NCBI GenBank assembly: GCA_963837465.1
Contig: CAWINB010000004.1
Span: forward strand, 724,393 to 788,392
Direction of reading: 5' to 3'
DNA from: Candidatus Doudnabacteria bacterium
GTDB lineage: Bacteria > Patescibacteriota > Doudnabacteria > UBA920
DNA length: 64,000 nt
This document shows positions 2,285-40,402 of this stretch, in pieces. The notes beneath the pieces are model-generated. The model had not been told where the DNA came from. It searched no databases and saw nothing but the letters and a program-made list of their open reading frames with translations. The first letter of the stretch is position 1. Every line of letters begins with the position of its first letter. The position numbers were made by a program, and so were the translations under genes.

Positions 2285-5200
2285 CTAATCCACCCCGACC
2301 ATGCCAATCTCATCCACCGATCTCAGCTCCGCCATCAAATCATTATTCATTCCCACCAGGGACTGGGTTTTTATTTTTTTGGCAGAATTCCCGCTGCCTA
2401 TGGACAGGTAAACTTGGGCGTTACCGGGGTATTTTTGTAAAATCCCCTTTATCCTGTTTAAAATTTCCATATTGGCCAGGCTGGACATATGCAGAACCAC
2501 GCTCTTGTTTTTTTCCATTTCCGACAGCGCCATATTGTATAAATCGTCGCCGGGCAGTTCCTTGATTTCGTCCGCGATGAGCTTTAGCTGCTCATCTTTG
2601 TCGCTGAGCCTGCCGGTAATCCGCAGGATTTTGTCATCGCTTAAGAACGGCAAAGCTTTTTCCATAACCTTGGGAAAAACCAAAACTTCCAGGCTGCCGC
2701 CGCCGTCGCCCAGGGTAAAAAAAGCCATAGGGTCGTTTTTACGCGTTAAAGTGCGCTTAAGCCGCGACACAATGCCGCCCAAAGTCAGGTTTAAACCCAC
2801 TTCTTCCAGGGACAAGCTTTTTATGGAGCGCAGCGTGGACAGGACTTTTTTGTGATTATCAAGAGGATGCGCCGAAACGTACATGCCCAAATGCTCTTTT
2901 TCCCAGACCAGTTTTTCTTCTTTGGTGGCGGGCGCCGAGTCCTTTAATTTTAATTTTCCCATTTGCAGGGATTTGCCGAACAGGGAATTTTGCCCGCTGT
3001 TTTGGTTTTTAAAATTTTCGCGGATAAAGTCCAAAATTTCCTCGGTATTATTAAGCAGCCGGCCGCGTTCGCCGTAAGCATCCAGCGCCCCGGCTTTGAC
3101 CAGGGCCTCCCAGGATTTTTTATTGAGATTTTTGGTGTAGGCGCGGGTCAGGAAATCTTCTAGGGACGAGAAAGGCGGCAGGGTAGGATAGAGGGGGCCA
3201 ACCGGGTTACTGTTCCCCAACAGCTCACCCCTAATCCCTATAATCTTGGCTATGACATCCGACCCCAGATTTTTAATCGCGTTAAGCCCAAACCTAATCG
3301 TGCTGTGATCCACCACCGTAAAATCCCCAAGCGATTCGTTAACATCCGGCGGCAGTACGCTGATACCCAAAGCTTTGCACTCCTCCACGGCTTCGTAAAT
3401 TTTTTCCTCGTCGCCGCTTTCCGCGGTCATTAAAGCCGCCATAAATTCCACCGGGTAGTTGGCTTTCATATAGGCCGTCTGGTAACTGACGGTGCTGTAA
3501 GAAGCCGCGTGCGCTTTGCCAAAACCGTAGGCGGCAAAAGGTTCTATTAAGGCGAAAAGTTCCGCCGCCTTTTCGGCGCGCATGCCGCCTTTAACGCAGC
3601 CATCTATGAATTTAATTTTTTGCTTGGTCATTTCCACCGGAATTTTTTTGCCCATGGCTTTGCGGAATTTATCCGCCTCTTCCCAGCTGTAGCCGGCGAT
3701 TTTAATGACAGTCAGCAAGACATCGTCCTGATAAACCAGCAGGCCCAGGCTCCGCTCCAGGTATTCTTTCATCCGGGGGTCAAAATAAGCGATTTTAGAC
3801 GGGTTATGCACGCGCTCTATATATTCGGGAATAATCCCCATGGGGCCCGGACGGTAAAGCGCTATCATGGCCATAATGTCAAAAATATTTTTCGGCTTGA
3901 GTTCTTTCAGATAGCGGGTAATGCCGGAAGACCCCAGCTGGAAAACGCCAAAAGTCAGGCCTTCGGAAAGCATTTTAAAAGTTTTCGCGTCGGGATGCGG
4001 AAGGTTGTAAATATCAATTGTTAAATTATGCCTTTTTTCCACCATTCTGACGGCGGATTCCAGGATGCTGAGGTTGCGAATGCCCAGCAAATCCAGTTTT
4101 ACGACGCCCAGAGCCCCGCTGCCGCCGGAATTCACATCCAGCGCGTACATGTCGTATTGGGTGATAATCCGCTCGCCGTCCGGCTCTTTTTGCAGAGGCA
4201 TGTAGTCGGTTAAGGCGGTGGGGGTTATGACGATTCCGGCGGCGTGCATGGAGGCGTGGCGCGCGCAACCCTCCAGTTTTTTGGCAATGTCCAAAACGCG
4301 TTTGGTTTCCGGGTCACGGTCGTAAATTTCCTTAAGTTCAGGGGTGTTTTGCAAAGCTTTTTCCAGCGTCATTAAAAAGCCCTGCTTTCCCAGAGGAATC
4401 ATTTTGGCAATTTGGTCGCACTTGGAATAAGGGATGGCCAGAGCGCGGCCGACATCCCTGACCGAGGCGCGCGCGGCCATGGTCCCAAAAGTTATAATTT
4501 GCGCGACTTTATCCGGGCCGTATTTTTTTGTGATGTAAACAATTGATTCGTCCCGGCGGTTATCGGCAATATCCAAATCTATATCGGGCGGAGCGGGGCG
4601 GTACATGGTTAAAAAACGCTCAAAGGGCAATTCGTAATATAAAGGGTCGACATTTGTAATGCCCAAAATCCGGCCCACGATGCTGCCGGCGGCGCTTCCT
4701 CTGGTGTTGGTAATAGCGCCGATATTATGGGCGCCCCGCACCACGTCCGCGACCATTAAAAAGTAACTGTCAAAACCTTTTTTGCAGATAATGTTGAGTT
4801 CGTAATCTATGCGGGTTTTAATTTCTTCCGGAATAGCAAGGTGTTCATCAACCCGGCTGTCATCGCGAGGAGCCCCGGAGGAATCCATCGGCGACGAAGC
4901 AATCTTTTCTTCGATGCTTGGATCAGATTGCTTCGGCCGCGCCCGCGATGACACATCTATAGGCTTGCCGTACAGCGGCAATGCTTTTTCATAAGTGACC
5001 TTCCTTAAATAATCCGCCGATGTTGTTCCTTGGGGGATTTCTACTTTTGGAAAGTATCTTTGGTCTGTCAAAATTTCCAAACTGCATAAATCCGCCACTT
5101 TTTGGGTATTTTGCACCGCCTCGGGAATATCGTAAAAAAGTTCCAGCATTCTTTCGCCGGATTTTAAAGACAGGTCATAACCGCGCATGTCCAAACGGTC

Positions 5201-5906
5201 GGCATCGTTTACCGTTCTGCCGGTACCGATGCAGACCATTACGTCCTGCGCTTCGGCATCTTCCGGGTATATATAGTGGCAGTCGGCCGTGGCCACCAGG
5301 TCAAGGTTGTTTTTTTTGGCCAGCGCCATTAATTTTTGGTTGAGCAGTTCTTCTTTAGGGTCGCCGGTTTTGCTGTTGCGCTGGATTTCTATAAACAATT
5401 TTTCCCTGCCGAAAATGTCCAGATATTTTTCCAAAACTTTTTGCGCCTCTTCCTCGGGTTTGCTCATAACCGACCGGGCAATCTCGCCGCGTTGGCAGCC
5501 GGAAAGGCAAATTAAGCCCTCGGCGTGGTTTTTCAGCAAGGCCAAATCTATCCGCGGCTTGTAATAAAATCCCCGCAAATGCGCTTCGGTGGTCAGCTTG
5601 ATTAAATTTTTATAGCCGGCGTCGTTTTGGGCCAGCAGGATTAGATGATGGTAATCGGCGTCAATTCTCCCTTCTTTTTCTTCCATGCCGCGCGGAGCAA
5701 TGTAAGCCTCAACTCCCACAATGGGTTTAACTCCGACTTCCCGGCAGTGATTATAAAATTCAATCGTCCCGTACATGACACCGTGATCCGTTACCGCAAT
5801 GCTGTCCATATCCAGTTCCTTGGCGCGTTCAACAAGCGGCTCGATTTTGCTTAAACCGTCCAGTAATGAATAATGGCTGTGGCAGTGGAGATGGGTGAAT
5901 TTCATT
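2285..5906 (-). CDS. dnaE: DNA polymerase III alpha subunit
   Basis: PHP-domain start MKFTHLHCHSHYSLLDG. The protein is collinear with DnaE along its full length. The ORF could extend to 6010, but the conserved start is at 5906. A roughly 45-aa low-complexity insert precedes the fingers region. Confidence 0.9.
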
Positions 5907-6071
5907 TTAATAGAAGCTGAGGGTGCGGCGCTGAACGCAAAGGCTGTATGTTGGCTCTGTGGTTGCGGCGTTTGTGTCAGCCCCGTTTTCGCAGCTTCCG
6001 CAAACAGCATACCAAAAATCCCCCGACTTTGCTATAATAAAATTGTAAAAAACAAACAAAATCGCGCTATT

Positions 6072-24216: not shown

Positions 24217-25814
24217 ATGCTCAATGAGACCAGGGTTAATTTAAAGCATCTGCTGGAAGACATTCGCGACGCCTATACTTCTCCCCTGGAAGAGGTTATT
24301 TTAACCGAATTGGCTGCCAATGCATTGGACAGCAAGGCTAAGGTTTTACATTTCACGGTGGACGCGGAGCGTAAGTTTTTGCGCTGCGTGGACGACGGCA
24401 ACGGCATGAAGCGGGAGCAACTGAAGAATTACCATAATATCGCGGCTTCCACCAAAACGCGCGGACAGGGCATTGGTTTTGCCGGCGTAGGCGCCAAACT
24501 TTCTTTATTGATTGCCGATAAGGTTGTAACGGAAAGCAAGGGAGGACACGGGACCAAGTCCGCCACGGAATGGCAATTGACCCAAACCTACCGCGCGCCA
24601 TGGAAATTTGTTCCTTATTCCGGGACCGTGCAAACCCCCCGCGGCACTTCCGTTACCATCCATTTTACGGACAGCCGGTCGCGCCTGCTCAGTGAAGATT
24701 TCGTGGAGCAAGCTATTATCCGCCATTTTTATCCGCTGCTTTCCGAACAGTTTTACAATCAGTTTTTAAAATATTTTTATAAAGTTCCCGTCAGTTTTGT
24801 TATTAATGGTCGGCATATTGTTTTGCCGGAAGCCGGGCAGGAAGCGCTGCAACATTGGTTTAAGGTATCGTTGGGAAAAACACGGGCTGCCGCCGGAGTC
24901 GGCTTTTTGGTGCGCGCGGGGATGGGCCAGGCTGGCTGCGGAAGATGCTGGGCAAAAGCGCTGCTGTTTCTTCGCTTTCATCAGGCCTGTGGATTTCCAC
25001 TTTCGGCAAGGTTATTAAAGGCGGTTGGGAGTGGCTGGGTCTTATGCCCAAAAATGCCGCGCAAATTTCCGGCCTGGTGGAAATTCCGGGTATGTCGGAA
25101 ATTTTGACTACCAACAAAAATGATTTTTTAAGCGATGCCAACAGCCTGAAAAAATACTACAAATTCCGCAAGGCCGCGCAGGAGGCGGTGCTGCCGATAC
25201 TGCAGGACATGGGAGAGACGGCTTCTCCCGCCGATATCGCCCCGGAAAAAATTTTGCGTCCTCTTAGCCAGTCTATTACCGGGGCGTTAACGAGCTTGGT
25301 CGGCGATTTTCCCGAGCTGGAAACGTTAATCGGCCAACACCGGACGGAAGCTTTGGGCAGTCCGAGAAAAGAAAAAGATGATAAAAAAATTACGGTTGCC
25401 GAACCCCCGGCGGATTACGGCGGAGATGGGGCCGGGCAGGATTCCGGGAACAGGCCCGATGCCGATCCGGAAGGGGAAAAGTCCGCTCCAACCCCGGCCG
25501 GCATTGCCGATGACTCCAAATCCAAAACAGTCAGGACAAAAACCGCCGGCTTAAAATTGGTGCTGGGGGAAATTGACAACGAAAACGGCGCAATTCTGGG
25601 CCGCGTTATGGAGGATACCCTGACGGTAAACACCGCGCATCCTGCCTGGAAAAAAGCAAAACAAAAAGGCTTGGAAGAATACCATATAGTAATTACGGTA
25701 GCGTCGGTCCTTTCCCAGTTTTTGGAAAGCGAAAAGAACCCGCGGGACTTCTTAAACCGCCTGCTCATAGCGTGGGCAGCTGAAAGTGAAAAAATGGCGG
25801 GAAAATTATTTTAA
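24217..25814 (+). pseudogene. GHKL (HATPase_c, MORC/MutL-like) ATPase, about 530 aa, split by a frameshift near 24900-24945
   Basis: Bergerat-fold motifs ELAANALD (N-box), DDGNGM and GQGIGFAGVGAKLS are present. The reading frame changes from the 24217 frame to the 24945 frame. The tail of frame 1 is nonsense-like. Confidence 0.6.
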
Positions 25815-26473: not shown

Positions 26474-26522
26474 CATAAAAGATAAAAAAGTAGTAAAATA
26501 AGCCTAAGAAAGGCTTATTTTT

Positions 26523-28064
26523 ATGGCTACAAAAACTAAAAATGGTACATCGGCAAACATAGGTTTTGAAGAAAAGCTTTGGGCCACAGCGGATAAAATG
26601 CGCAACAATATGGACCCGGCCGAATATAAGCACGTTATTCTGGGGCTTATATTTTTAAAGTATATTTCCGACTCTTTTGAAGAACTCTATCAAAAGTTAA
26701 AAACTGATTCTGAATCCGATCCGGAAGATAAAGACGAGTATTTGGCGGAAAACGTTTTTTGGGTGCCGCAGGAGGCACGCTGGAACTATTTACAGGATAA
26801 CGCCAAAAAGCCCGGTATCGGCACTTTGGTAGATGGGGCTATGGTCGCCATTGAAAAAGAAAACCCCACGCTTCGGGGCGTGCTGCCAAAAATTTACGCG
26901 CGCCCGGACCTGGACAAAACCAGGCTCGGTGAAATAATAGATTTAATGAGTTCCCTTGGCCTGGGGGATAACGAAAGTAAGGCTAAGGATTTGTTGGGCC
27001 GGGTATATGAATATTTCATCGGCCGCTTTGCCAGCGCCGAGGGTAAGGGTGGCGGAGAATTTTTTACTCCGCGGTCTGTTGTAAAATTACTGGTGGGAAT
27101 GATTGAGCCTTATAAAGGCAGAATTTATGATCCCTGCTGCGGCAGTGGTGGTATGTTTGTGCAGAGCGAGAAATTTGTGGAAGCGAACGACGGCCGCAAA
27201 GGGGATATTGCGGTGTACGGACAGGAGTTAAATCCTACTACCTGGCGCTTGTGTAAAATGAACCTGGCTATTCGCGGTATAGAAGGAAATATCGGGTCGC
27301 AGCATGCCGATTCGTTCCATAATGACCAGCACAAAGACTTAAAAGCGGATTTTATCTTGGCCAATCCGCCATTTAATATCAGCGATTGGGGAGGGGAGCG
27401 CTTGCGCGATGATGTCCGCTGGCAATACGGCGTGCCGCCAACCGGTAACGCCAACTATGCCTGGATTCAGCATATGGTTTACCATCTTGCTCCAACCGGT
27501 ATAGCCGGTTTTGTTATGGCTAATGGCAGTCTTTCTTCCAATACTTCCGGCGAAGGTGAAATTAGAAAAAATTTAATAGAAAAAGGTTTGGTCGATTGTA
27601 TTGTAGCCATGCCCAGCCAACTTTTTTATACCACACAAATTCCGGCCTGTTTGTGGTTTGTGTCCCGCGACCGTTACGATCACAAATTCCGCAACCGCCA
27701 CGACGAAATACTGTTTATAGACGCCCGTAAAATGGGCGCTATGGTTAGCCGCAAAAACCGCGAATTTGCCGCGGAAGATTTAAACAAAATCACCGGTACC
27801 TACCACAACTGGCGCAACGTCAACGGTAAATACCAGGACGTAAAAGGCTTCTGCAAAGCCGCCAAAATTACGGAAGTGGAAAAAGCCGGCTTCGTCCTAA
27901 CCCCCGGCCGCTATGTTGGCTCGGAAATTGTGGAAGAAGACGATGAAGTCTTTGGAGAAAAAATGAAGCGATTGACCACGGAACTATCAAGCCAATTTAA
28001 GGAATCTAAAGAGCTGGAAGAAAGAATAAAGAAAAATTTGGATTCAATAGGGTTTAAAATATAA
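26523..28064 (+). CDS. hsdM: type I restriction-modification system methyltransferase subunit
   Basis: HsdM N-terminal domain, the motif [13 protein letters not shown], and the FxGxG AdoMet region. Confidence 0.9.
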
Positions 28065-28071
28065 ATAGCAT

Positions 28072-28713
28072 ATGTTGATATTTATTGACGAATCCGGGGA
28101 TCCTGGGTTAAAACTTGGTGAAGGTTCAAGTAAATATTTTACTGTGGCTTTAGTAGTGTTTGAGGAAAATGATGAAGCGCTTGCTTGCGACCAAAAGATT
28201 GAATTGTTCAAGCGAGAATTGGGATGGAAGCCAAAAAGCGAATTTCATTTTAAAAATAACTCAGACAGAGTCCGCAAAGGCTTTTTGCAGGCAGTCGCGC
28301 CGTACAATTTTTTTTATTATGGAATTGTTTTAAACAAAGACCCTAAAAAGTTATGGGGCGAAGGATTTAAGGACAAGCAATCCTTTTACAAATACGCTTG
28401 CGGCCTGGTTTTTGAAAATGCAAAACCCAAACTTACAGAAGCAACAGTTATTATTGATGCCAGCGGCAGTTTGGATTTTAAAAATCAGCTGACTAAATAC
28501 CTGCGCCGCAAATTTAATGAGCAAGGAAATTCAGGTTCTAAAATAATCAAAAATGTAAAGATGCAACGCTCGGAAAGTAATAATTTATTGCAGCTGGCGG
28601 ATTATATTGCAGGCGTAATTAACCGCTCAATCAATAACACTAAAAAATACTCCGGCGATTACAGAAAGCTTATAGCTCACAGGGAGATAAGGGTACAAAT
28701 TTGGCCAAATTAA
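28072..28713 (+). CDS. DUF3800-family protein embedded between hsdM and hsdS
   Basis: N-terminal IFIDESGD and C-terminal LLQLADYIAG signatures. It starts 8 bp after the hsdM stop. Confidence 0.6.
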   Translation: MLIFIDESGDPGLKLGEGSSKYFTVALVVFEENDEALACDQKIELFKRELGWKPKSEFHFKNNSDRVRKGFLQAVAPYNFFYYGIVLNKDPKKLWGEGFKDKQSFYKYACGLVFENAKPKLTEATVIIDASGSLDFKNQLTKYLRRKFNEQGNSGSKIIKNVKMQRSESNNLLQLADYIAGVINRSINNTKKYSGDYRKLIAHREIRVQIWPN

Positions 28714-28886
28714 AACTTCCGACCCTATCCCTTGCGGGAACGCGGCGATAAACGCCACAGTTCAGATCGGAAGCGATTCCATTGTTATTATATCTGACTA
28801 TTAACCTTTGTCAAGAACTGTTAAGACTTGTTAAGCAATTATTCCCTTAATAACAAAAAAAGCCTATAATTAAGGCACTATAATTA

Positions 28887-28914
28887 CCGCAAAATGCCTA
28901 AAGGCATTTTGCGG
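28887..28914. promoter_or_regulatory. perfect 12-bp-stem hairpin ccgcaaaatgcc-taaa-ggcattttgcgg in the hsdM-DUF3800 / downstream-operon spacer
   Basis: Seen directly. It is preceded by tataat-like boxes (cctataattaagg, cactataatta). Confidence 0.45.
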
Positions 28915-28927
28915 TCAAAAACCAGTT

Positions 28928-29257
28928 TTGTCAAACAAGTTTATGAAAAAAGGCTCAAAAAAAGAACTGGAAATTAGCGCGAAAGATCTAAAAACCATTT
29001 TTGGCAAAGACTATAAAAAATTCCAGACAAAAATACTCACCAACTGTTTTTGTATGAACTGCGCAGATAAAAAAGCAAACGCAACAATAATAAACTATAA
29101 AATAATCCTCAACCCCCTAAACGACCTAACCCTCCTCGGCTCCTGCAAAACCTGCGGCTCCAGAATTAACCGATATGTGGAGACTGGGGAAGTGAAGGGG
29201 TATGCGGGAAGGATTAAAAAAATAAGAAAAACATATGACGACTCTGGAAAAAATTAA
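28928..29257 (+). CDS. hypothetical zinc-ribbon protein
   Basis: Contains CFCMNC...CKTCG. It is translationally coupled to downstream ORFs. Confidence 0.4.
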   Translation: MSNKFMKKGSKKELEISAKDLKTIFGKDYKKFQTKILTNCFCMNCADKKANATIINYKIILNPLNDLTLLGSCKTCGSRINRYVETGEVKGYAGRIKKIRKTYDDSGKN

Positions 29258-29552
29258 TCTATGGCAGGCCATATTTACCGGTGTGGCAGTTTTGGTTGCC
29301 GGTGTTGCAACTTATTTGGCTTATAAAATTGGCAAAAAACAGAATAAAATAAATGAGATTGCTTTAAGTATTACCAATTTTGTAGAAATATTTTTGATGC
29401 CGCAACAGGTAATTCTAGAAAATGAACTTAAAGAAAGAATTATCAAATGGAGCATTCTTAATAAAAAATGTCAGCTCTTATCCAATATACTTAAACGAAT
29501 ACAGTCTCAACGGGCTGAAAAATCACGTGGGGAGCAGTGCGATACCAAATGA
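29235..29552 (+). CDS. hypothetical single-TM protein
   Basis: TM helix AIFTGVAVLVAGVATYLAY. Its 3' part overlaps the next ORF in another frame (possible frameshift or overlap). Confidence 0.3.
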   Translation: MTTLEKINLWQAIFTGVAVLVAGVATYLAYKIGKKQNKINEIALSITNFVEIFLMPQQVILENELKERIIKWSILNKKCQLLSNILKRIQSQRAEKSRGEQCDTK

Positions 29553-29724
29553 TTTAGACAGTTGGTATACGGTCCCAATCCCCGAAGATGTACAAACTAA
29601 AGGCGAATTTTCTTTGATCGTTGAATTTGAAGACTACTTGGGTAAAAAATACAAGGCGGAAGGTTTTGGAATTTTTAGAGGCACAGGCTGGGAAATAAAA
29701 TCCAAAAAGAGAATTGAAATATGA
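29422..29724 (+). CDS. hypothetical protein
   Basis: 100 aa, ending 3 bp into hsdS. Confidence 0.3.
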   Translation: MNLKKELSNGAFLIKNVSSYPIYLNEYSLNGLKNHVGSSAIPNDLDSWYTVPIPEDVQTKGEFSLIVEFEDYLGKKYKAEGFGIFRGTGWEIKSKKRIEI

Positions 29725-30980
29725 AACAAATCACTACAAAATTCAAACAAACCGAAATCGGCCTTGTTCCGGAAGAATGGGATGTTTTAAAGGTGTCTGA
29801 TGTTGCAGTGGTGGATGAAGAAGTTATTTCAAAAAATGATAATTTTAGCGAAATTCAGTACTTGGACGTTGCGGCAACAGATCAAGGACAGGTACTAGAA
29901 GTTCAAAAACTAAATCTAGCAGATGCTCCAAGTCGTGCCAAAAGAAAAGTCAAAGACAATGACATTTTAATATCCACAGTAAGGCCAAATTTAAAACATT
30001 ATACTTTTATTAAAAAAGCGCCAAATAATCTAGTGGCTTCTACTGGTTATGCGGTAATAAGTTCAAAAAAAGCAGATCCAAGATATTTATATTACGCTTT
30101 AACAACAGAAGAATTTACAGAATTTCTTGGAAGAATTGCGGATAGCCATACTTCGACTTATCCAGCAATTAATCCAGATGTGATCGAAAACGCTTTAATA
30201 GCAGTACCATCAATAACCGAACAAAAACAAATCGCGGAGATTCTTTGTTCTTTGGACGACAAAATAGAACTGAACCGCAGAATGAATAAAACTTTAGAAG
30301 CAATCGGACAGGCAATTTTTAAACGGTGGTTTGTGGATTTTGAATTCCCAAACGAACAAAGCAAACCTTACAAATCGTCGGGTGGGGAAATGGTAGAAAG
30401 CGAATTGGGTGAAATTCCGAAAAATTGGAATGTTGGAAAGCTAAGTGATATTGCTAATATAATTATGGGCCAATCGCCAAAATCTAAATATTATAATAGC
30501 AATAAAGAAGGTTTGCCGTTTTATCAAGGCGCAACGGATTTTGGAGATCGTTTTCCTACTGAGCGTGTCTATTGCATAAAAAATAGCAGGGTTGCAGAAG
30601 AAAATGATATATTGATGAGTGTTCGCGCTCCTGTAGGGAGAATTAATGTTGCAAACGGCAAACTATCCTTAGGAAGAGGAGTTTGCGCAATGCGCAGCAA
30701 AATTGGAAGTCAGTCACATTTATTGTATTTATTAAAAGTGTTTTTCCATACAGAAGATATTATAGGCGATGGCTCAGTTTTTGCTTCTGTAGCGCGCGAT
30801 GAGCTTTCAAAAATACCGGTTATAGTACCCCCACAAGAGATTGTTAATTTATTTGAAAGAATTACCGGGCAGACGGATAGACAATATGAACTACTAGCAA
30901 AAGAGAATACTAACTTATCCCAAATCCGAGACTCGCTTTTGCCTCGGTTGATGAGTGGAAAAATTAGAGTAATTATATGA
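29721..30980 (+). CDS. hsdS: type I restriction-modification system specificity subunit (two target-recognition domains)
   Basis: Duplicated TRD architecture with conserved spacer helices and a C-terminal ...LPRLMSGKIRV. Confidence 0.85.
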   Translation: MKQITTKFKQTEIGLVPEEWDVLKVSDVAVVDEEVISKNDNFSEIQYLDVAATDQGQVLEVQKLNLADAPSRAKRKVKDNDILISTVRPNLKHYTFIKKAPNNLVASTGYAVISSKKADPRYLYYALTTEEFTEFLGRIADSHTSTYPAINPDVIENALIAVPSITEQKQIAEILCSLDDKIELNRRMNKTLEAIGQAIFKRWFVDFEFPNEQSKPYKSSGGEMVESELGEIPKNWNVGKLSDIANIIMGQSPKSKYYNSNKEGLPFYQGATDFGDRFPTERVYCIKNSRVAEENDILMSVRAPVGRINVANGKLSLGRGVCAMRSKIGSQSHLLYLLKVFFHTEDIIGDGSVFASVARDELSKIPVIVPPQEIVNLFERITGQTDRQYELLAKENTNLSQIRDSLLPRLMSGKIRVII

Positions 30981-31732
30981 TTAGACTTGTTGTGAATTTA
31001 ACATTTTTAGAAAAAATTAAATCTGGGGATTTTCTGACTTTTTTTGCGGTTGTCCTCGCATATCTTGCTTATTCAAAATCAATAAATGATAAATATGAAT
31101 CTTGGCGGTCATTGCTTTTATCTCTCAAGGCTGATTTAGAAAGCCAATCTGCATGGCTGTCTTCTGAATATAAAGAAGAAACTTATAAAGATAAGACTGC
31201 TTTTTCTCCTAGAAAAATTATTTTCCCCCTCTCGTTTAAATCGTTAGAAGAAATAATAAGTCGTGGCGCTAGCGATTTTAATTTTTCGGAAAAATTTATA
31301 AAAAATATTTCAATTTTTGATGAAAGAATAGAAACATTTAACAAGCTCCTTGAACAGCAGAGGCTGAATGTAACTGCAAATCCTGTATTAACACATAATT
31401 TGGTAGAAATTTTGGATTCAAATGGGGCTTGTGATTGCGCCACAACTTATGATAATTTTTTTCAATCTATTGAGAATATGAAGGTTTCTCAGCCGGATTG
31501 TTATGCTTTAGCCAAAAGAATACACTCAATTAATAGGATTATACATATCAACATCATATCAAACGAGGACGACGAAAGCGGCCTGCACTATCTATACAAA
31601 TATTTGTTAAATGAAGTACAAAATAAGCTTTCTAATCTAGAAAAATCTAAGCCGTGGCATTTAAGGTATAAATGGCCGCTATTGATTCTTGGATGCGTTT
31701 TGTTTATTCTTATTGAATCGTTACTAAAATAA
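30977..31732 (+). CDS. hypothetical membrane protein (TM helices at both ends) embedded between hsdS and hsdR
   Basis: 251 aa. It overlaps the hsdS stop by 4 bp and ends 4 bp before hsdR. Confidence 0.45.
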   Translation: MIRLVVNLTFLEKIKSGDFLTFFAVVLAYLAYSKSINDKYESWRSLLLSLKADLESQSAWLSSEYKEETYKDKTAFSPRKIIFPLSFKSLEEIISRGASDFNFSEKFIKNISIFDERIETFNKLLEQQRLNVTANPVLTHNLVEILDSNGACDCATTYDNFFQSIENMKVSQPDCYALAKRIHSINRIIHINIISNEDDESGLHYLYKYLLNEVQNKLSNLEKSKPWHLRYKWPLLILGCVLFILIESLLK

Positions 31733-31735
31733 TAT

Positions 31736-34700
31736 ATGTCAACTTACAAATATACCGAATCAGATTTTGAAGAAGCAACATTGGAATGGCTCCAAGAGCT
31801 TGGTTTTAATATTGCTTTTGGGCCGGATTTAGCGCCGGAGGGGGAGAGTGCGGAGAGGGAAAGTTATGGGGATGTGGTTTTGGTGGGGAGGCTTAGGGCG
31901 GCTGTTGAACGGATTAATCCTGGGGTGCCGGAAGCGGCTAGGAATGATGCTGTGGAGAAGGTTTTGGGTTTGCCCTGGATGAAGCCGAACTTGATGGGGG
32001 TGAATGAGATTTTCCATAAATGGTTGGCGGAAGGGGTGGATGTTACGGTAAAGGAGAAGGATGGTTTTGTGCGGGGAGATAAAGTTTATTTAATAGATGA
32101 GAAAAATTTAAAGAATAACGACTGGTTAGCGGTTAACCAGTTTACGGTTATAGAAAATAACAATAATCGGCGCCCGGATGTTGTGGCTTTTGTGAATGGG
32201 TTGCCGCTGGCAGTTTTTGAGTTAAAAAATCCGGCTAATCCGAATGCTCCAATTGGGGATGCTTTTAACCAGATTCAGACTTACAAAAAAGAAATTCCAT
32301 CTTTATTTGCTTATAACGAACTGTGCGTAATTAGCGACGGAGTGGAAGCTAAGCTCGGCAGCTTTGGCGCGGATTTGGATAGGTTTATGAAGTGGCGGAC
32401 AATAAACGGCGGAGACGTAGAGCCAAAGTCGCGGCCGGAAATGGAAGTTTTGCTTCGCGGGGTGTTTGAAAAACAAAGATTTTTGGATATCGTTAAAAAC
32501 TTTATAGTTTTTGAGGCAACGGAAAAAGAAACCATAAAAAAACTGGCAGCTTACCACCAGTATTATGCCGTGAACAAGGCCCTGCAAAAAACCGTGGAAG
32601 CTACAGCCGAAAATGGCGACAGGCGTTGCGGTGTGGTTTGGCACACACAAGGGTCGGGGAAAAGCTTGAGTATGGTATTTTATGCCGGAAAAGTTATTCA
32701 GACTTTAAACAATCCAACTATAGTTGTGCTAACTGACAGGAATGACTTAGACGGCCAATTGTTTGATGTGTTCGGCAAGTGCAAAGAGCTGCTGCGTCAA
32801 ACCCCGGTGCAGGCGGAAAGCAGGGCGAATTTAAAGGACTTGTTAAAAGTCGCTTCCGGGGGCGTAGTGTTTACAACTATCCAGAAATTTTTTCCGGATA
32901 ACAACGCGCAACAACATCCATTACTTTCTGACAGAAAAAACATTGTAGTAATCGCGGACGAAGCGCACAGAAGCCAGTACGACTTCATAGACGGCTTTGC
33001 CCGGCATACGCGCGACGCTTTGCCCAATGCCAGCTTTATTGGCTTTACCGGCACGCCCATTGAACACACCGACGCCAATACCCGCGCCGTGTTTGGTGAA
33101 TATATAGACATTTACGATATTGCCCGCGCGGTGGAAGACCATGCCACCGTGCCAATTTACTACGAGGCCCGTTTGGCCAAAATAGATTTACCGCCATCGG
33201 AAAAGCCAAAAATAGACAGCGAGTTTGAAGAAATAACCGAAGGCGAAGAAACAGAAAAGGTAGAAAAACTAAAAAGCAAATGGGCGCGGTTTGAAGCTAT
33301 GATTGGCGCGGAAAAAAGAATTCAGCTGATAGCCAAAGACATTGTAGAGCATTTTGAAAACCGTTTGGGAGTTATAGACGGCAAGGGAATGGTTGTTGCC
33401 ATGAGCAGGCGGATTGCTGTTGAGCTGTACGAAGAAATCATCAAACTAAGGCCTCAGTGGGCAACTGCCGACGACCAAACCGGCTTTTTAAAAGTAGTTA
33501 TAACCGGTTCCGCGGCGGACCCGGCAAACTTTCAGCCGCATATTCGCGCCAAACCCGAGCGGGAAAAAATGGGCGACAGAATGCGCGACCCAAAAAACGA
33601 ATTAAAATTGGTAATTGTGCGCGATATGTGGCTAACGGGTTTTGACGTGCCCAGCATGCACACCATGTACATAGACAAACCTATGAAAGGCCACGGCCTT
33701 ATGCAGGCCATTGCCCGAGTCAACAGAATTTACAAAGACAAACAAGGCGGCTTGGTAGTGGATTATTTAGGAATTGCCCAGCAGCTTAAAGAAGCAATGG
33801 CAGATTATACCGACAGCGAGCGCGAAGCGCCAACTATACCGCAGGAAGAAGCGGTAAGTATACTGCTGGAAAAGTATGAAGTCATAAAAGGCTTATTCCA
33901 CGGCTTTGATTACTCCAAATATTTTACCGGCACTAAAGCCAGTCAAAACCAGGTTATGGTTGCGGCGGTGGATTTTATCTTAAAGCCGCAAGATGGCAAA
34001 AAAAGATTTCTGCAGTCCGCGCGGGAACTGTCTTTTGCTTTTTCGCTTTCCGTTCCAAATGATCAGGCTTTAAAAATTCGCGACCAGGTTGCTTTTTTCC
34101 AGGCCGTACGCGGCTATTTGATTAAACTGGAAAGCGGCGGCGGTCTCGGCGGCCCCACGCGGCACGATTACGACATGGCCATTAAACAAATAGTGGCCAA
34201 TGCCATAACCTCCACCGAAGTTATAGACGTTTTTACCGTGGCCGGTTTAAAACGTCCGGACATTTCTATCTTATCCGACGAATTTTTGGAAGAAGTAAAA
34301 AATCTCGAACACAAAAATTTGGCTTTGGAACTTTTAAAGAAACTCCTCAACAACGAAATTCTAACTTTGCAGAAAAAGCATTTGGTAAAATCACGCCTAT
34401 TTTCCCAAATGCTGGAGGAAACATTAAGGAAATATCAAAACCAAACTATAGAATCCGCGCAGGTTATTGCCGAACTCATTGAGCTGGCCAAAAAAATTCG
34501 TGCCGACCAGAACAGGGGAGTGGATTTAAAGCTTTCCGATGACGAAGTTGCTTTTTATGACGCCCTGGCTGATAATGAAAGCGCGCAGGAATTAGGGGAC
34601 GAAACCCTAAAACAAATTGCCCGGGAGCTGGTCCAATTATTGCGGAAAAATACCACCATAGACTGGACGCTTAAAGAAAGCATTCAGGCAAAGCTTAGGG

Positions 34701-34873
34701 TGATGGTCAAAAAACTTTTACGCAAATACCAATATCCTCCAGACAAGCAGGAAAGCGCTGCGAAGTTGGTTTTGGAACAAGCGGAAATTTTATGCAAAGA
34801 TTGGGACGGAGAAGAATTGCCAAAATACAGCTATCATTTTGTGAAAGAAGAAAGAGCTCTTTATAACTCATAA
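31736..34873 (+). CDS. hsdR: type I restriction enzyme R subunit
   Basis: SF2 helicase motifs ([23 protein letters not shown]), an N-terminal nuclease domain, and 1045 aa in total. Confidence 0.9.
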
Positions 34874-38191: not shown

Positions 38192-38413
38192 ATGCAGAAT
38201 GTATTTACCAAAAATTTTCGCGTCCAGATTTGGTTTGACGCGCCGCCTGACAAAATTTTGCTGGGAACAATATCGCTTTGCGCCCAGGATGAGGAATCGG
38301 CCATGAGGCTGGCCCGCGCGCACACCAGTTATTGTCAGTCCGGAACCGATAACATAAACTGGACACTGGAAGAACGGGGCAGGCTCTATATATGTTTGGG
38401 CAAAGCGGTTTAA
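38192..38413 (+). CDS. small hypothetical protein, paralogue of 23040..23237
   Basis: See 23040..23237. Confidence 0.5.
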   Translation: MQNVFTKNFRVQIWFDAPPDKILLGTISLCAQDEESAMRLARAHTSYCQSGTDNINWTLEERGRLYICLGKAV

Positions 38414-38422
38414 AATTAATTA

Positions 38423-40402
38423 TTGTTTGCTATGGACGACCAGCAAAAGCCAAAGTTTGGCATGGCCGAGCTGCGCAAAACTTATCCACGCGCGGGCATG
38501 AAATGGGATAAGGAAGAAGATCAAAGGTTGCAAAGGCTTTATATTGATCATCGCGAAAGCGCGAGCGGGGATTTTGAAGTTTTTGTCAGGGGTTTATCCC
38601 GGCAATTCGGCCGCGCTGCCGGCGGGCTTAAAGCCAGGCTGGCTATGCATTTTGACGATGTTCCCGGCTGGGATTACGGCCGGGATCAATTTAGGGCTGA
38701 GGAGTTAAATAAACGCACGGAGGAAGCGTTGCCCTCGCTTCATGACGAATTGCTTAAAACCGAATATCAGCGGTACGTTAAAAATAAGGACCAAACTTAC
38801 CATGCTTTTTTAAAGCAGTTGTCCGCGCGTTTAGGCGGAGTAAAAGGCGAGCTTATCCGTAACCGATTGGAGCAGCTGGCAGGTATGGTTCAAAAGTATG
38901 GCCGGGAAGATATCGGTTTCAGTACTCCGGCATCGCGGCTTGCCGGCCGCAAAGGAAGCGAAATCCCGCGGTTGGATATCAGCGGCAATTCTTTGGCCCA
39001 GGAGGCTTTGCGTCTGATGAACGAAACCTCCCAAAATCTTTTCCTAACCGGCGAAGCCGGCACCGGCAAATCCACGCTTTTAAACTATTTCCGCAAAACG
39101 GCCAAAAAGAACGTTGTAGTCTTGGCGCCCACAGGCGTGGCCGCGCTGAACGTGGAAGGCCAGACCATCCATTCATTCTGCGCTTTTGGCCCGGACATTA
39201 CCCCGCGAAAGGTAAAAAAATTGTCGCCCTGGTCGGCCAAAAAAAAACTTCTGGAAAAACTCAACACCATAGTTATAGATGAAATTTCCATGGTCCGCGC
39301 CGATTTGCTTGACTGCGTGGATAAATTTTTGCGTTTGAACGGCTTAACCAACCAACAGCCTTTTGGCGGCTATCAAATGGTCTTTATCGGCGACCTGTAC
39401 CAGTTGCCGCCTGTGGATAAAGATTTTGGCGCAGGTGATGGTTTAATAAAAGAATACAACAGCCCCTATTTTTTTGAAGCAAGAGCCTTTAAAAGTTCGG
39501 TTTTTGAGTTTATTGAGCTAAAAACCATTTATCGCCAAAAAGACCGGGTGTTTAAGGACTTGCTTAATGCCGTGCGCAATAACGCGGCAACCTCGGAACA
39601 TTTAACTTTGCTGAACCGTCGCGCTTTGGACGAAGGCGAAAAATTTACTTTTGAAGAATTTGCCATTTATCTCACTCCTCACAATGCCAGGGCTCGGCAA
39701 ATAAATAATTTTTTCCTGGAACGCGTACAATCGCCCGTAAAAGTTTATATGGGTACCGTTAAGGGAAGTTTTGAAGGTCGGGAACTGCCCACGGACTTGG
39801 AACTGAACGTTAAATCCGGAGCCCAGGTTATGATGCTTAACAACGACAGCCGCAGGCGGTGGGTTAACGGGACAATGGGAAAAATTGTCAGGGTGGAAAA
39901 GTCTGTGGCGGAGAATGATAGTAATAATCGGGACAATAATTACTATAGCAAGGATGATAATTTTATTATAGGAGATGAAGCTGTGGCCGACAGATTTATT
40001 GTCCCAAAAGATGATAGCGACACAAGCTCAAGTCCGGACGTCATTGTTATAGAGCTGGAAACGGGTTAGACGGTGTATGTTGAGCCACATACCTGGGAAA
40101 TGTTTAAATTTATTTTGGATAAAGACACACAAAGCGTAGACAGCGAGGCAACCGGAACTTTTAGCCAGTATCCTTTTAAGCTGGCCTGGGCGGTTACCAT
40201 CCACAAAGCCCAGGGCAAAACTTTTGATAAGGTTTATGTGGACCTTTCAACCGGCACTTTTGCCCACGGACAGCTTTATGTCGCCCTTTCCCGCTGCCGC
40301 ACGCTGGAAGGCTTGTATCTGAAGCGCCCCATTGCTTCCCGGGACATAATTTTAGACGACCGCATAGTCAAATTTTTGGAAAGTTTTACGGCTCCAAATT
40401 GA
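38423..40402 (+). pseudogene. Pif1/RecD-like helicase with a roughly 200-aa N-terminal extension, interrupted by an in-frame TAG at 40067-40069
   Basis: Walker A GEAGTGKST, DEISM and GDLYQLPPV motifs lie upstream of the stop. [13 protein letters not shown] and LYVALSRCR lie downstream in the same frame. Conservation continues across the stop. Confidence 0.65.

Follow-up and report, generated by a model that had tools for sequence, protein, structure and literature searches.

What are the additional genes that lie nested among hsdM, hsdS and hsdR in a type I restriction-modification (R-M) operon, and are they bound to the restriction enzyme or only lodged beside it? The question is raised by a 64-kb stretch of contig CAWINB010000004.1 (henceforth the window), in which a gene for a DUF3800 protein follows hsdM, and genes for a small zinc-ribbon protein (ZnR), a single-pass membrane protein (TM164) and a 251-aa protein (251) are interleaved with hsdS and hsdR. 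The original prediction held that six unassigned open reading frames (ORFs) are wired into this operon as one R-M-dependent defence module. It placed every ORF correctly, and hsdM, hsdS and hsdR are full length when compared with Pfam and PADLOC; the six extra ORFs, however, come to five protein genes, since those at 29235 and 29422 are two pieces of TM164. We lean towards a different view of the whole, namely that four passenger cassettes, each distributed independently, have landed in an intact type I R-M operon and use it as their expression platform, and that one of them would have a toxin/RNA-antitoxin logic. We infer the function of every insert, defence itself included, from its context.

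The window has three sister operons, in loci L098, L104 and L108, whose HsdM and HsdR proteins are 74-77% and 62-68% identical, respectively, to those of the window. The order in the window is hsdM, DUF3800 with its class IX RNA, ZnR, TM164, hsdS, 251 and hsdR. In L098, hsdM is followed by a barely alignable DUF3800 gene with a convergent small RNA (sRNA) and then by ZnR, a Bro-N protein, an 80-aa transmembrane protein, hsdS, 251 and hsdR. L104 carries, after hsdM, a third DUF3800 (25% identical) with a DUF3800-V RNA, then TM164, a 165-aa transmembrane protein, hsdS, two small ORFs and hsdR, while the order in L108 is hsdM, a Schlafen/AlbA_2-HATPase_c_4 gene, ZnR, TM164, hsdS, a 245-aa protein and hsdR. 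This last protein (L108 5243-5980) has N- and C-terminal transmembrane segments and no detectable homology to the 251 family, and it may be an analogue of the 251-aa protein in the same hsdS-hsdR slot. In other such operons the same slots hold RhuM, Abi_2 or an OLD-like ATPase. The pattern is combinatorial: parts of the window operon recur in all three sisters and gene order is partly conserved, but no one order is fixed. Because each insert has its own distribution and the sister operons swap the cargo of their slots, this pattern fits independent modules on a shared expression platform. It speaks against the single wired module first proposed, whose components occur separately and are replaced by different cargo in the sisters.

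The first cassette combines a protein with an RNA. As originally predicted, a DUF3800-type protein follows directly on hsdM, and it matches PF12686 at 58.6 bits (cut-off 21) over profile positions 1-148 of 149. In the alignment of its relatives D6, E7, K89, S167 and D177 never vary and D129 hardly does; because D6, E7, D177 and D129 are kept to this degree, a D-E-D-D active centre is plausible. The residues also match the N-terminal DE and C-terminal QxxD (here QLAD) described for the family. Its structure is predicted to be nuclease-like, the RNase HII-like fold agreeing with the RNase H2-like fold of that description. The view that none of the inserts has an assignable function is borne out for ZnR, TM164 and 251, which have no significant match in Pfam, NCBIfam, PADLOC or PHROGs. 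A match of the DUF3800 protein to the PADLOC model DUF3800_VII is weak. In a phage collection the DUF3800 query matched one genome only (two accessions), that of Ralstonia phage RsoM1USA (MG747435.1), a temperate-type phage in which an annotated DUF3800 gene (38210-38818, 27% identity) lies near the genome end; its presence there is compatible with a moron or with defence cargo.

The 214-bp spacer downstream of the DUF3800 gene had been described as containing a perfect hairpin. The hairpin is real, but the spacer is not empty, as it holds on the minus strand an RNA gene of class DUF3800-IX together with its promoter. The RNA matches the Rfam model at 54.7 bits (gathering score 36.8, E 8e-10) over model positions 1-67 of 67, and a scan of the window with Rfam returned only tRNAs and this RNA. 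The last 3 nt of the sRNA, at its 3' end, overlap the DUF3800 stop codon. The RNA is predicted to fold into a three-way junction (z-score -3.5), with the outer stem and GUUUU at the end, and its promoter is the sole 12/12 consensus match in the 9.7 kb scanned.

We fetched 80 genomic loci with relatives of the window DUF3800. On the strand opposite to the gene, no more than about 30 nt from where the DUF3800 match ends, a class IX RNA is present in 12/12 loci and then in 9/11 more (21/23 in total); these loci come from several phyla and include a DUF3800 relative only 27% identical. A TTGACA/-10 pair and a conserved GGAAT(T) precede the RNA in all 13 loci inspected, and compensatory changes affect 17 of the 20 predicted base pairs across 22 sequences. 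Since the convergent RNA recurs in 21 of 23 loci, its promoters are conserved and its base pairs covary, DUF3800 and the convergent sRNA are a fixed two-part cassette.

At the site after hsdM, one such pair is replaced by another. The DUF3800 proteins encoded there in the window, L098 and L104 are about 25-28% identical or barely alignable, and each is accompanied by a different convergent sRNA. In L104, a DUF3800-V RNA (5844-5939, minus strand; RF02964, 55.2 bits), followed by a strong intrinsic terminator, converges on a DUF3800 gene directly 3' of an hsdM whose product is 76% identical to that of the window. In L098, a candidate new DUF3800-associated sRNA of about 70 nt (4030-4130, minus strand; fold z-score -4.1) converges on the divergent DUF3800 gene from a TTGACA-18-TATAAT promoter (4130..4101, 12/12), and has no Rfam match even at E <= 10.

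At least 8 of the 80 loci with DUF3800-IX cassettes have an R-M-like gene within 3 kb, a lower bound, as only 15 query proteins were used. The neighbours are type I systems in four loci (L019, L032, L040 and L088, with RhuM or Abi_2 adjoining in the first two). In L016 (4377-10456) the cassette sits between type III mod and res, in L015 (4939-8714) and L037 it lies directly 3' of Type ISP enzyme genes, and in L024 it lies near or after a type IIG Eco57I/MmeI-like gene. The cassette seems to prefer as its neighbour a gene with a methyltransferase, whatever the R-M type.

How might such a cassette act? We prefer a scheme in which the abundant, structured 64-nt sRNA, a predicted three-way junction, would keep silent the DUF3800 nuclease, whose predicted fold is RNase HII-like and whose active site is probably D-E-D-D. 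Silencing could operate through binding of the protein (type III-like), through pairing with the read-through 3' end of the DUF3800 mRNA (type I-like), or through both. Infection that shuts off host transcription or degrades the sRNA would then free the nuclease, as a second line of defence behind restriction. We favour this toxin/RNA-antitoxin arrangement for four reasons: the RNA promoter is very strong, whereas the DUF3800 gene has no recognisable promoter and is coupled to hsdM; each protein subfamily goes strictly with its RNA class; retrons set a precedent for a DUF3800 domain partnered with a structured nucleic acid; and the cassette resides in immune loci.

A rival reading is that of a selfish mobile element, in which an RNase H-fold recombinase or nuclease uses the adjacent RNA in the way of the IS110 bridge RNA or the TnpB omega RNA, R-M operons are no more than its insertion sites and the other ORFs are neutral cargo. 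Such an element would suit the occurrence of the cassette at many unrelated genomic sites, including one between uvrB and uvrA, the exchange of cassettes at the same hsdM-proximal site, and the carriage of a DUF3800 gene by a phage. We nevertheless regard it as very unlikely: the DUF3800 protein, at only 213 aa, lacks any additional domain for DNA binding or recombination and is present in a single copy in the window; the RNA has no hypervariable single-stranded 'guide' segment, its variation being compensatory within stems; and no terminal repeats were noticed, although no systematic search for them was made.

The remaining three cassettes encode the small proteins ZnR, TM164 and 251, members of new families found repeatedly within restriction loci. 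The 251 family comprises only six clusters among 5.8 billion proteins, plus nine metagenome loci. Twelve of its 13 distinct contexts place the gene within one gene of a restriction or methylase gene, and the family member usually overlaps the upstream gene by a few bases. It lies between hsdS and hsdR of type I systems in the window, L095, L097, L098 and L099, after hsdS at the contig end in L102, and after an hsdS remnant in L100 and L101. In L004 it lies between mod and res of a type III system. Among type II enzymes it adjoins an EcoRI-family methylase (L005) and an NmeDI-family nuclease (L002) and is one gene away from an MvaI/BcnI nuclease (L096), and in L007 it stands beside a type IV-like HARE-HTH/PD-(D/E)XK protein. 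No R-M gene was recognised around the homologue in L103. The window protein is helical and, by Kyte-Doolittle hydropathy, has only one clear transmembrane segment, at the C terminus (residues 231-251), the N-terminal hydrophobic stretch being short. A HEPN-like Rx4-6H motif was not seen when the family alignment was inspected by eye, the protein had no plasmid match, and the family profiles of 251 and TM164 gave nothing significant against PDB sequences.

These contexts bear on the proposal of one integrated guardian or abortive-infection module of PrrC type, in which HsdMSR would hold the inserts latent and phage inhibition of restriction would fire them. The gene prrC lies between hsdS and hsdR. 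The DUF3800 gene was originally said to take the PrrC position; the slot is in fact that of the 251 gene, and the proposal gains from the presence of 251 there in six type I loci. It gains further from junctions that are tight or overlapping throughout, from an order that is partly kept (ZnR-TM164-hsdS-(two-transmembrane protein)-hsdR in L108; DUF3800-sRNA-ZnR...hsdS-251-hsdR in L098), and from the fact that the concept of R-M guardians is established. We still judge it distinctly unlikely. Dependence of the inserts on R-M in the manner of PrrC is hard to square with a 251 family that pairs with four R-M types, type II, III and IV-like enzymes included, or with a DUF3800 cassette found mostly outside recognisable R-M loci (8/80 within 3 kb, with a limited query set) and without ZnR, TM164 or 251 in about 80 loci. 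TM164 too occurs alone (L011, L014, L106), unrelated genes are swapped into the slots of the sister operons, and searches of Pfam, NCBIfam and PADLOC gave none of the inserts a signature of PrrC, an ABC ATPase or an anticodon nuclease.

TM164 was read originally as two ORFs, 29235-29552 and 29422-29724. When fused, these find as a single query 45 homologues of 46-66% identity, which have 124-237 aa (almost all 145-194 aa) and most of which cover 90-100% of the query. The frame of the first ORF fits the family as far as ...IIKWSIL and that of the second from IKNVSSYP; dropping one T from 'CATTCTT' (29455/29456) yields a protein that fits the consensus, with the repaired translation ...IIKWSILIKNVSSYP... 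A slip in the A-run at 29419-29422 was considered as the site of the shift and rejected, as the alignment matches the family through ...IIKWSIL. Logan contig L001 (run ERR10755945), an independent assembly of the same strain that otherwise matches the window at 100% identity across 11,598 nt, begins at the break site with an intact 'CATCTT'. Because of this intact version, which is told apart by just the two terminal bases of the contig, the frameshift reads as an assembly error or a polymorphism and not as a fixed pseudogene. Phase variation is unlikely, the site being TT versus T with no long homopolymer. The protein has one predicted N-terminal transmembrane helix, at residues 7-30.

Five of eight TM164 contexts are directly linked to restriction, namely the type I operons of the window, L104, L108 and the P0019 locus, and L110 (1212-2854), where the homologue runs into the first codons of a GmrSD_N/HNH gene (type IV restriction) and a serine recombinase follows. 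TM164 hence also travels with modification-dependent restriction. In L011, L014 and L106 there is no adjoining restriction gene. As both TM164 and 251 associate with many enzyme types, we suggest a back-up role independent of R-M for the two, which are most likely R-M-type-independent defence effectors or exclusion factors, for example in membrane-acting abortive infection, rather than Hsd-specific partners.

Could the inserts instead be decaying or lineage-specific junk ORFs? TM164 is frameshifted, a neighbouring GHKL ATPase gene looks split, the cargo is AT-rich, and databases contain extremely few members of the ZnR and 251 families. Yet all five proteins have diverged homologues (40-70% identity) in which length and invariant residues are kept, the reads of the same strain contain an intact TM164 allele (the two terminal bases of L001), and the RNA shows covariation and conserved promoters. 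These conservation data largely refute junk, which we find barely credible. The original prediction had itself named two ways in which it could fail, and they have fared differently: the inserts are conserved genes rather than junk, whereas the ORFs at 29235 and 29422 are indeed one frameshifted gene, albeit one with intact counterparts.

The zinc ribbon of ZnR was correctly recognised, but the 109-aa version, beginning at TTG 28928, is probably too long; homologues begin at ATG 28943, which favours that start. A word-indexed search of 5.8 billion proteins gave no match, and homologues surfaced only by tblastn, in loci fetched for other reasons (51% identity in L098 and 48% in L108, both in the same operon position). 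ZnR is found only in this hsd clade and is conserved there. The hairpin of the spacer, whose arms measure 14 nt and not 12 as first given, is located 28 nt 5' of the ZnR ATG, just past two TATAAT boxes (28865, 28879), and is unique in the window by a repeat test. We rejected it as an intrinsic terminator, there being no U-tract on either strand. The two boxes and the palindrome may together form a second start site with an operator or a hairpin in the 5' untranslated region. Neither L098 nor L108 has kept the palindrome in front of ZnR.

In a further alternative, the small proteins would belong to the restriction enzyme itself as accessory or regulatory components, ZnR as a controller acting at the palindrome and TM164 and 251 as membrane tethers where foreign DNA enters, with DUF3800 and its sRNA an unrelated passenger. 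ZnR is confined to this hsd clade and is always the first gene of the distal unit, in the window just downstream of the TATAAT boxes and the perfect palindrome; the non-homologous transmembrane protein in the hsdS-hsdR slot of L108 suggests selection for a membrane protein there; and translational coupling suits stoichiometric co-production. We consider this alternative unlikely, as the palindrome is not kept in L098 and L108, the partners of 251 are mechanistically unrelated (MvaI/BcnI, NmeDI and EcoRI-methylase families, type III, HARE-HTH/PD-(D/E)XK), TM164 also occurs away from any restriction gene, and most type I systems do without such subunits.

The operon that would carry these cassettes is, judged by the domain content of HsdM, HsdS and HsdR, an intact and complete type I R-M operon (Table 1). 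HsdM matches PF12161 (HsdM_N, 4.5e-27), PF02384 (N6_Mtase, 1.7e-110) and, over its full length, PADLOC MTase_I (5e-241). In HsdS, PF01420 (Methylase_S) matches in two stretches, corresponding to two target-recognition domains, and PADLOC Specificity_I matches residues 41-417 (1.4e-94). HsdR has HSDR_N (5-213), SWI2_SNF2 (274-508), T1R_D3 (611-677) and T1RH-like_C (695-1021) domains by Pfam and is full length against PADLOC REase_I (1123 bits, residues 5-1022, profile of 1029 positions). The tight junctions originally described for the distal unit are confirmed, with overlaps of 23 nt (ZnR/TM164), 4 nt (TM164/hsdS) and 4 nt (hsdS/251) and a gap of 3 nt between 251 and hsdR; the gap between hsdM and DUF3800 is 7 nt. 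In the 9.7 kb scanned for promoters, no convincing promoter of its own was found for any of the four passenger protein genes, which would be co-transcribed with the hsd genes through these short gaps or overlapping start and stop codons. The cargo between 28.0 and 31.5 kb has a GC content of 32-38%, against 42-50% in hsdM and hsdR. The source contig measures 868 kb, and every protein is a singleton in clustering at 90% identity. The closest relatives of the inserts come from metagenome-assembled genomes of Patescibacteria (Candidate Phyla Radiation, CPR), and the host, with a tiny genome, is therefore probably a CPR bacterium.

Table 1. Features of the type I R-M operon and its inserts (positions in the window).
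Feature	Position	Strand	Description
hsdM	26523..28064	+	Type I methyltransferase subunit, 513 aa; Pfam HsdM_N and N6_Mtase, PADLOC MTase_I
DUF3800	28072..28713	+	RNase HII-like putative nuclease, 213 aa; PF12686; starts 7 nt after the hsdM stop
DUF3800-IX RNA	28711..28774	-	Small RNA gene, 64 nt; Rfam RF02968; convergent on DUF3800
sRNA promoter	28814..28787	-	TTGACA-16 nt-TATAAT, 12/12 sigma-70 consensus
Palindrome	28886..28915	.	Perfect hairpin, 14-nt arms 28886-28899 and 28902-28915; fold z-score -5.4
ZnR	28943..29257	+	Small zinc-ribbon protein, probably 104 aa from ATG; CxCxxC...CxxC
TM164	29235..29724	+	Single-pass membrane protein, 162 aa when repaired; split by an extra T at 29455/29456
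hsdS	29721..30980	+	Specificity subunit, 419 aa; Pfam Methylase_S, PADLOC Specificity_I
251	30977..31732	+	251-aa helical protein with a C-terminal transmembrane segment; new R-M-linked family
hsdR	31736..34873	+	Restriction subunit, 1045 aa; Pfam domains, PADLOC REase_I

Around the operon, an 11-bp-stem palindrome (AAAATAAGCCT...AGGCTTATTTT) at 26495-26521 ends 1 nt before the hsdM ATG and may terminate the 69-aa ORF upstream or act as a hairpin in the translation or regulation of hsdM. Further upstream, a GHKL/HATPase_c_3 ATPase gene seems to be broken into an ORF at 24217-25107, which looks out of frame in its C-terminal residues, and an overlapping ORF in another frame at 24945-25814, with weak matches to sacsin-type P-loop, BbrUII/HgiDII-family and TmtA models. 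This second possible frameshift within 5 kb fits either indel errors of the assembly or gene decay. Downstream, at about 38430-40400 (L001 8979-10949), a PIF1/AAA_30 helicase called at 545 aa is followed by a separate 100-aa UvrD_C_2 ORF, possibly from a split gene. Genes for Smr, DUF2196, an FAD-dependent oxygenase, a methyltransferase and RadC lie between hsdR and this helicase.

Several observations weigh against the reading that we favour, of a landing pad with a toxin/RNA-antitoxin cassette and small defence proteins. The sRNA forms no tandem repeat array upstream of the toxin gene as in ToxIN, and its overlap with the DUF3800 ORF is just 3 nt. Other DUF3800 RNA classes occur on either side of the gene and on either strand (Weinberg et al., PMC5737381), which weakens a purely antisense model. 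With the limited query set used, 72 of the 80 class IX cassettes have no R-M-like gene within 3 kb, and in L022 (5825-11285) the cassette lies between uvrB and uvrA, in a DNA-repair context; for these two reasons context does not prove defence. The match of DUF3800 to PADLOC PDC-M04A is weak (32.6 bits, E 1.3e-8, against the authors' working threshold of >=50 bits), and no other PDC-M04 component was matched among the ten proteins scanned. With the frameshift of TM164 in the assembled sequence, some members of the population may have an inactive gene, and a fold search with the 251-aa protein was uninformative. What stands of the inserts as defence candidates is the link to restriction of 251 (12/13) and TM164 (5/8) and the retention of ZnR within its clade, while the general principle behind the idea had already been published.

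A wider extrapolation, which we put forward as speculative and rather doubtful, is that DUF3800 nucleases and their cognate sRNAs, of at least 11 unrelated RNA classes, are widespread, unrecognised anti-phage modules in which the RNA acts as antitoxin or sensor, that they preferentially lodge just after R-M methyltransferase genes and are swapped there as cassettes, and that TM164 and 251 are membrane-acting back-up effectors travelling with any R-M type. The DUF3800-associated RNAs, eleven unrelated structures taken to serve a single protein family, have been without a functional hypothesis since 2017, and this locus and its sister operons supply one, whose protein-RNA question is directly testable with a 0.8-kb construct. 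Replacement of one class by another at a single site is as expected for immune cassettes under diversifying turnover. Three families new to defence databases, two of them repeatedly tied to restriction enzymes, also add to the catalogue of immunity in CPR bacteria, which is poorly explored.

Among known systems, PrrC of EcoprrI (and also RloC) shares with the window the embedding in a type I operon of a gene with a possible back-up role to restriction, and in the 251-aa protein an occupant of the hsdS-hsdR slot. PrrC and RloC differ in combining an N-terminal ABC-type ATPase with a C-terminal anticodon-nuclease domain, which none of the five inserts matches in Pfam, NCBIfam or PADLOC. Moreover, PrrC is reported almost exclusively embedded in type I systems, with its activity under the control of the Hsd complex, whereas here DUF3800 follows hsdM, 251 also accompanies type II, III and IV-like enzymes, and the DUF3800 cassette is mostly unembedded (8/80).

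The RNA has closer relatives. Weinberg et al. (2017, PMC5737381) found DUF3800 genes accompanied by 11 unrelated RNA motifs (I-XI) and put forward no hypothesis on their function. The RNA of the window, which adjoins a DUF3800 gene, falls into class IX (RF02968) with a full-length match above the threshold, and that of L104 belongs to class V (RF02964). The literature on the related drum and skipping-rope RNAs gave nothing useful on function. As for the protein, DUF3800 is an effector fused to or next to the reverse transcriptase (RT) of type VII retrons (Mestre et al. 2020, PMC7736814), and a TPR-DUF3800 protein partners a branch of Cas12a2 (PMC10910872). Common to these and to the window are an RNase H2-like domain bearing a DE motif, a structured nucleic acid as its partner, and an immune context. 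On the other side, no RT domain was found in any ORF of the 24.2-35.1 kb scanned, no msr/msd (Rfam scan) or CRISPR array is present here, and the window protein keeps the QxxD motif (QLAD) that is absent from the retron-linked clade. Type III (ToxIN-like) and 3'-overlapping type I toxin-antitoxin systems resemble the cassette in setting a small putative nuclease gene beside a structured sRNA with a strong promoter, in a convergent RNA that abuts the 3' end of the protein gene, and in the co-variation of protein subfamily and RNA class. In ToxIN, however, the RNA consists of tandem repeats upstream on the same strand and is processed by the toxin, whereas here it is a single copy, downstream and convergent, with a promoter of its own, and the putative toxin has a predicted RNase H-like fold rather than one like ToxN/Kid. 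On this comparison, membership of ToxIN and of the retrons fails on defining features, while the proposed logic resembles both.

The nearest parallel for the operon as a whole is 'guilt-by-embedding', by which genes embedded in type I R-M, BREX, DISARM and Hma operons were recognised as defence (Payne et al. 2024, bioRxiv 10.1101/2024.01.29.577857), and from which the PADLOC PDC models derive; TgvAB of Vibrio cholerae VPI-2 likewise represents defence genes embedded in a type I operon (PMC11411939). The window shares with these systems extra same-strand genes nested between hsd genes, exchangeable cargo (sister loci hold RhuM, Abi_2, Bro-N, an OLD-like ATPase and a Schlafen-like ATPase) and, in its DUF3800 protein, a weak match to a candidate of that very approach (PDC-M04A). 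It differs in that ZnR, TM164 and 251 match no PADLOC model, that the host is probably a CPR bacterium, and that one cassette holds a non-coding RNA gene, a kind of partner invisible to protein-based embedding screens. The general phenomenon of embedding is already published. New are a DUF3800 cassette of fixed convergent geometry with consensus promoters, its RNA partner recurring in four types of R-M operon; the exchange of one DUF3800/RNA class for another at a single site next to hsdM; a candidate further RNA class in L098; and three protein families, ZnR, TM164 and 251, absent from Pfam, NCBIfam, PADLOC and PHROGs.

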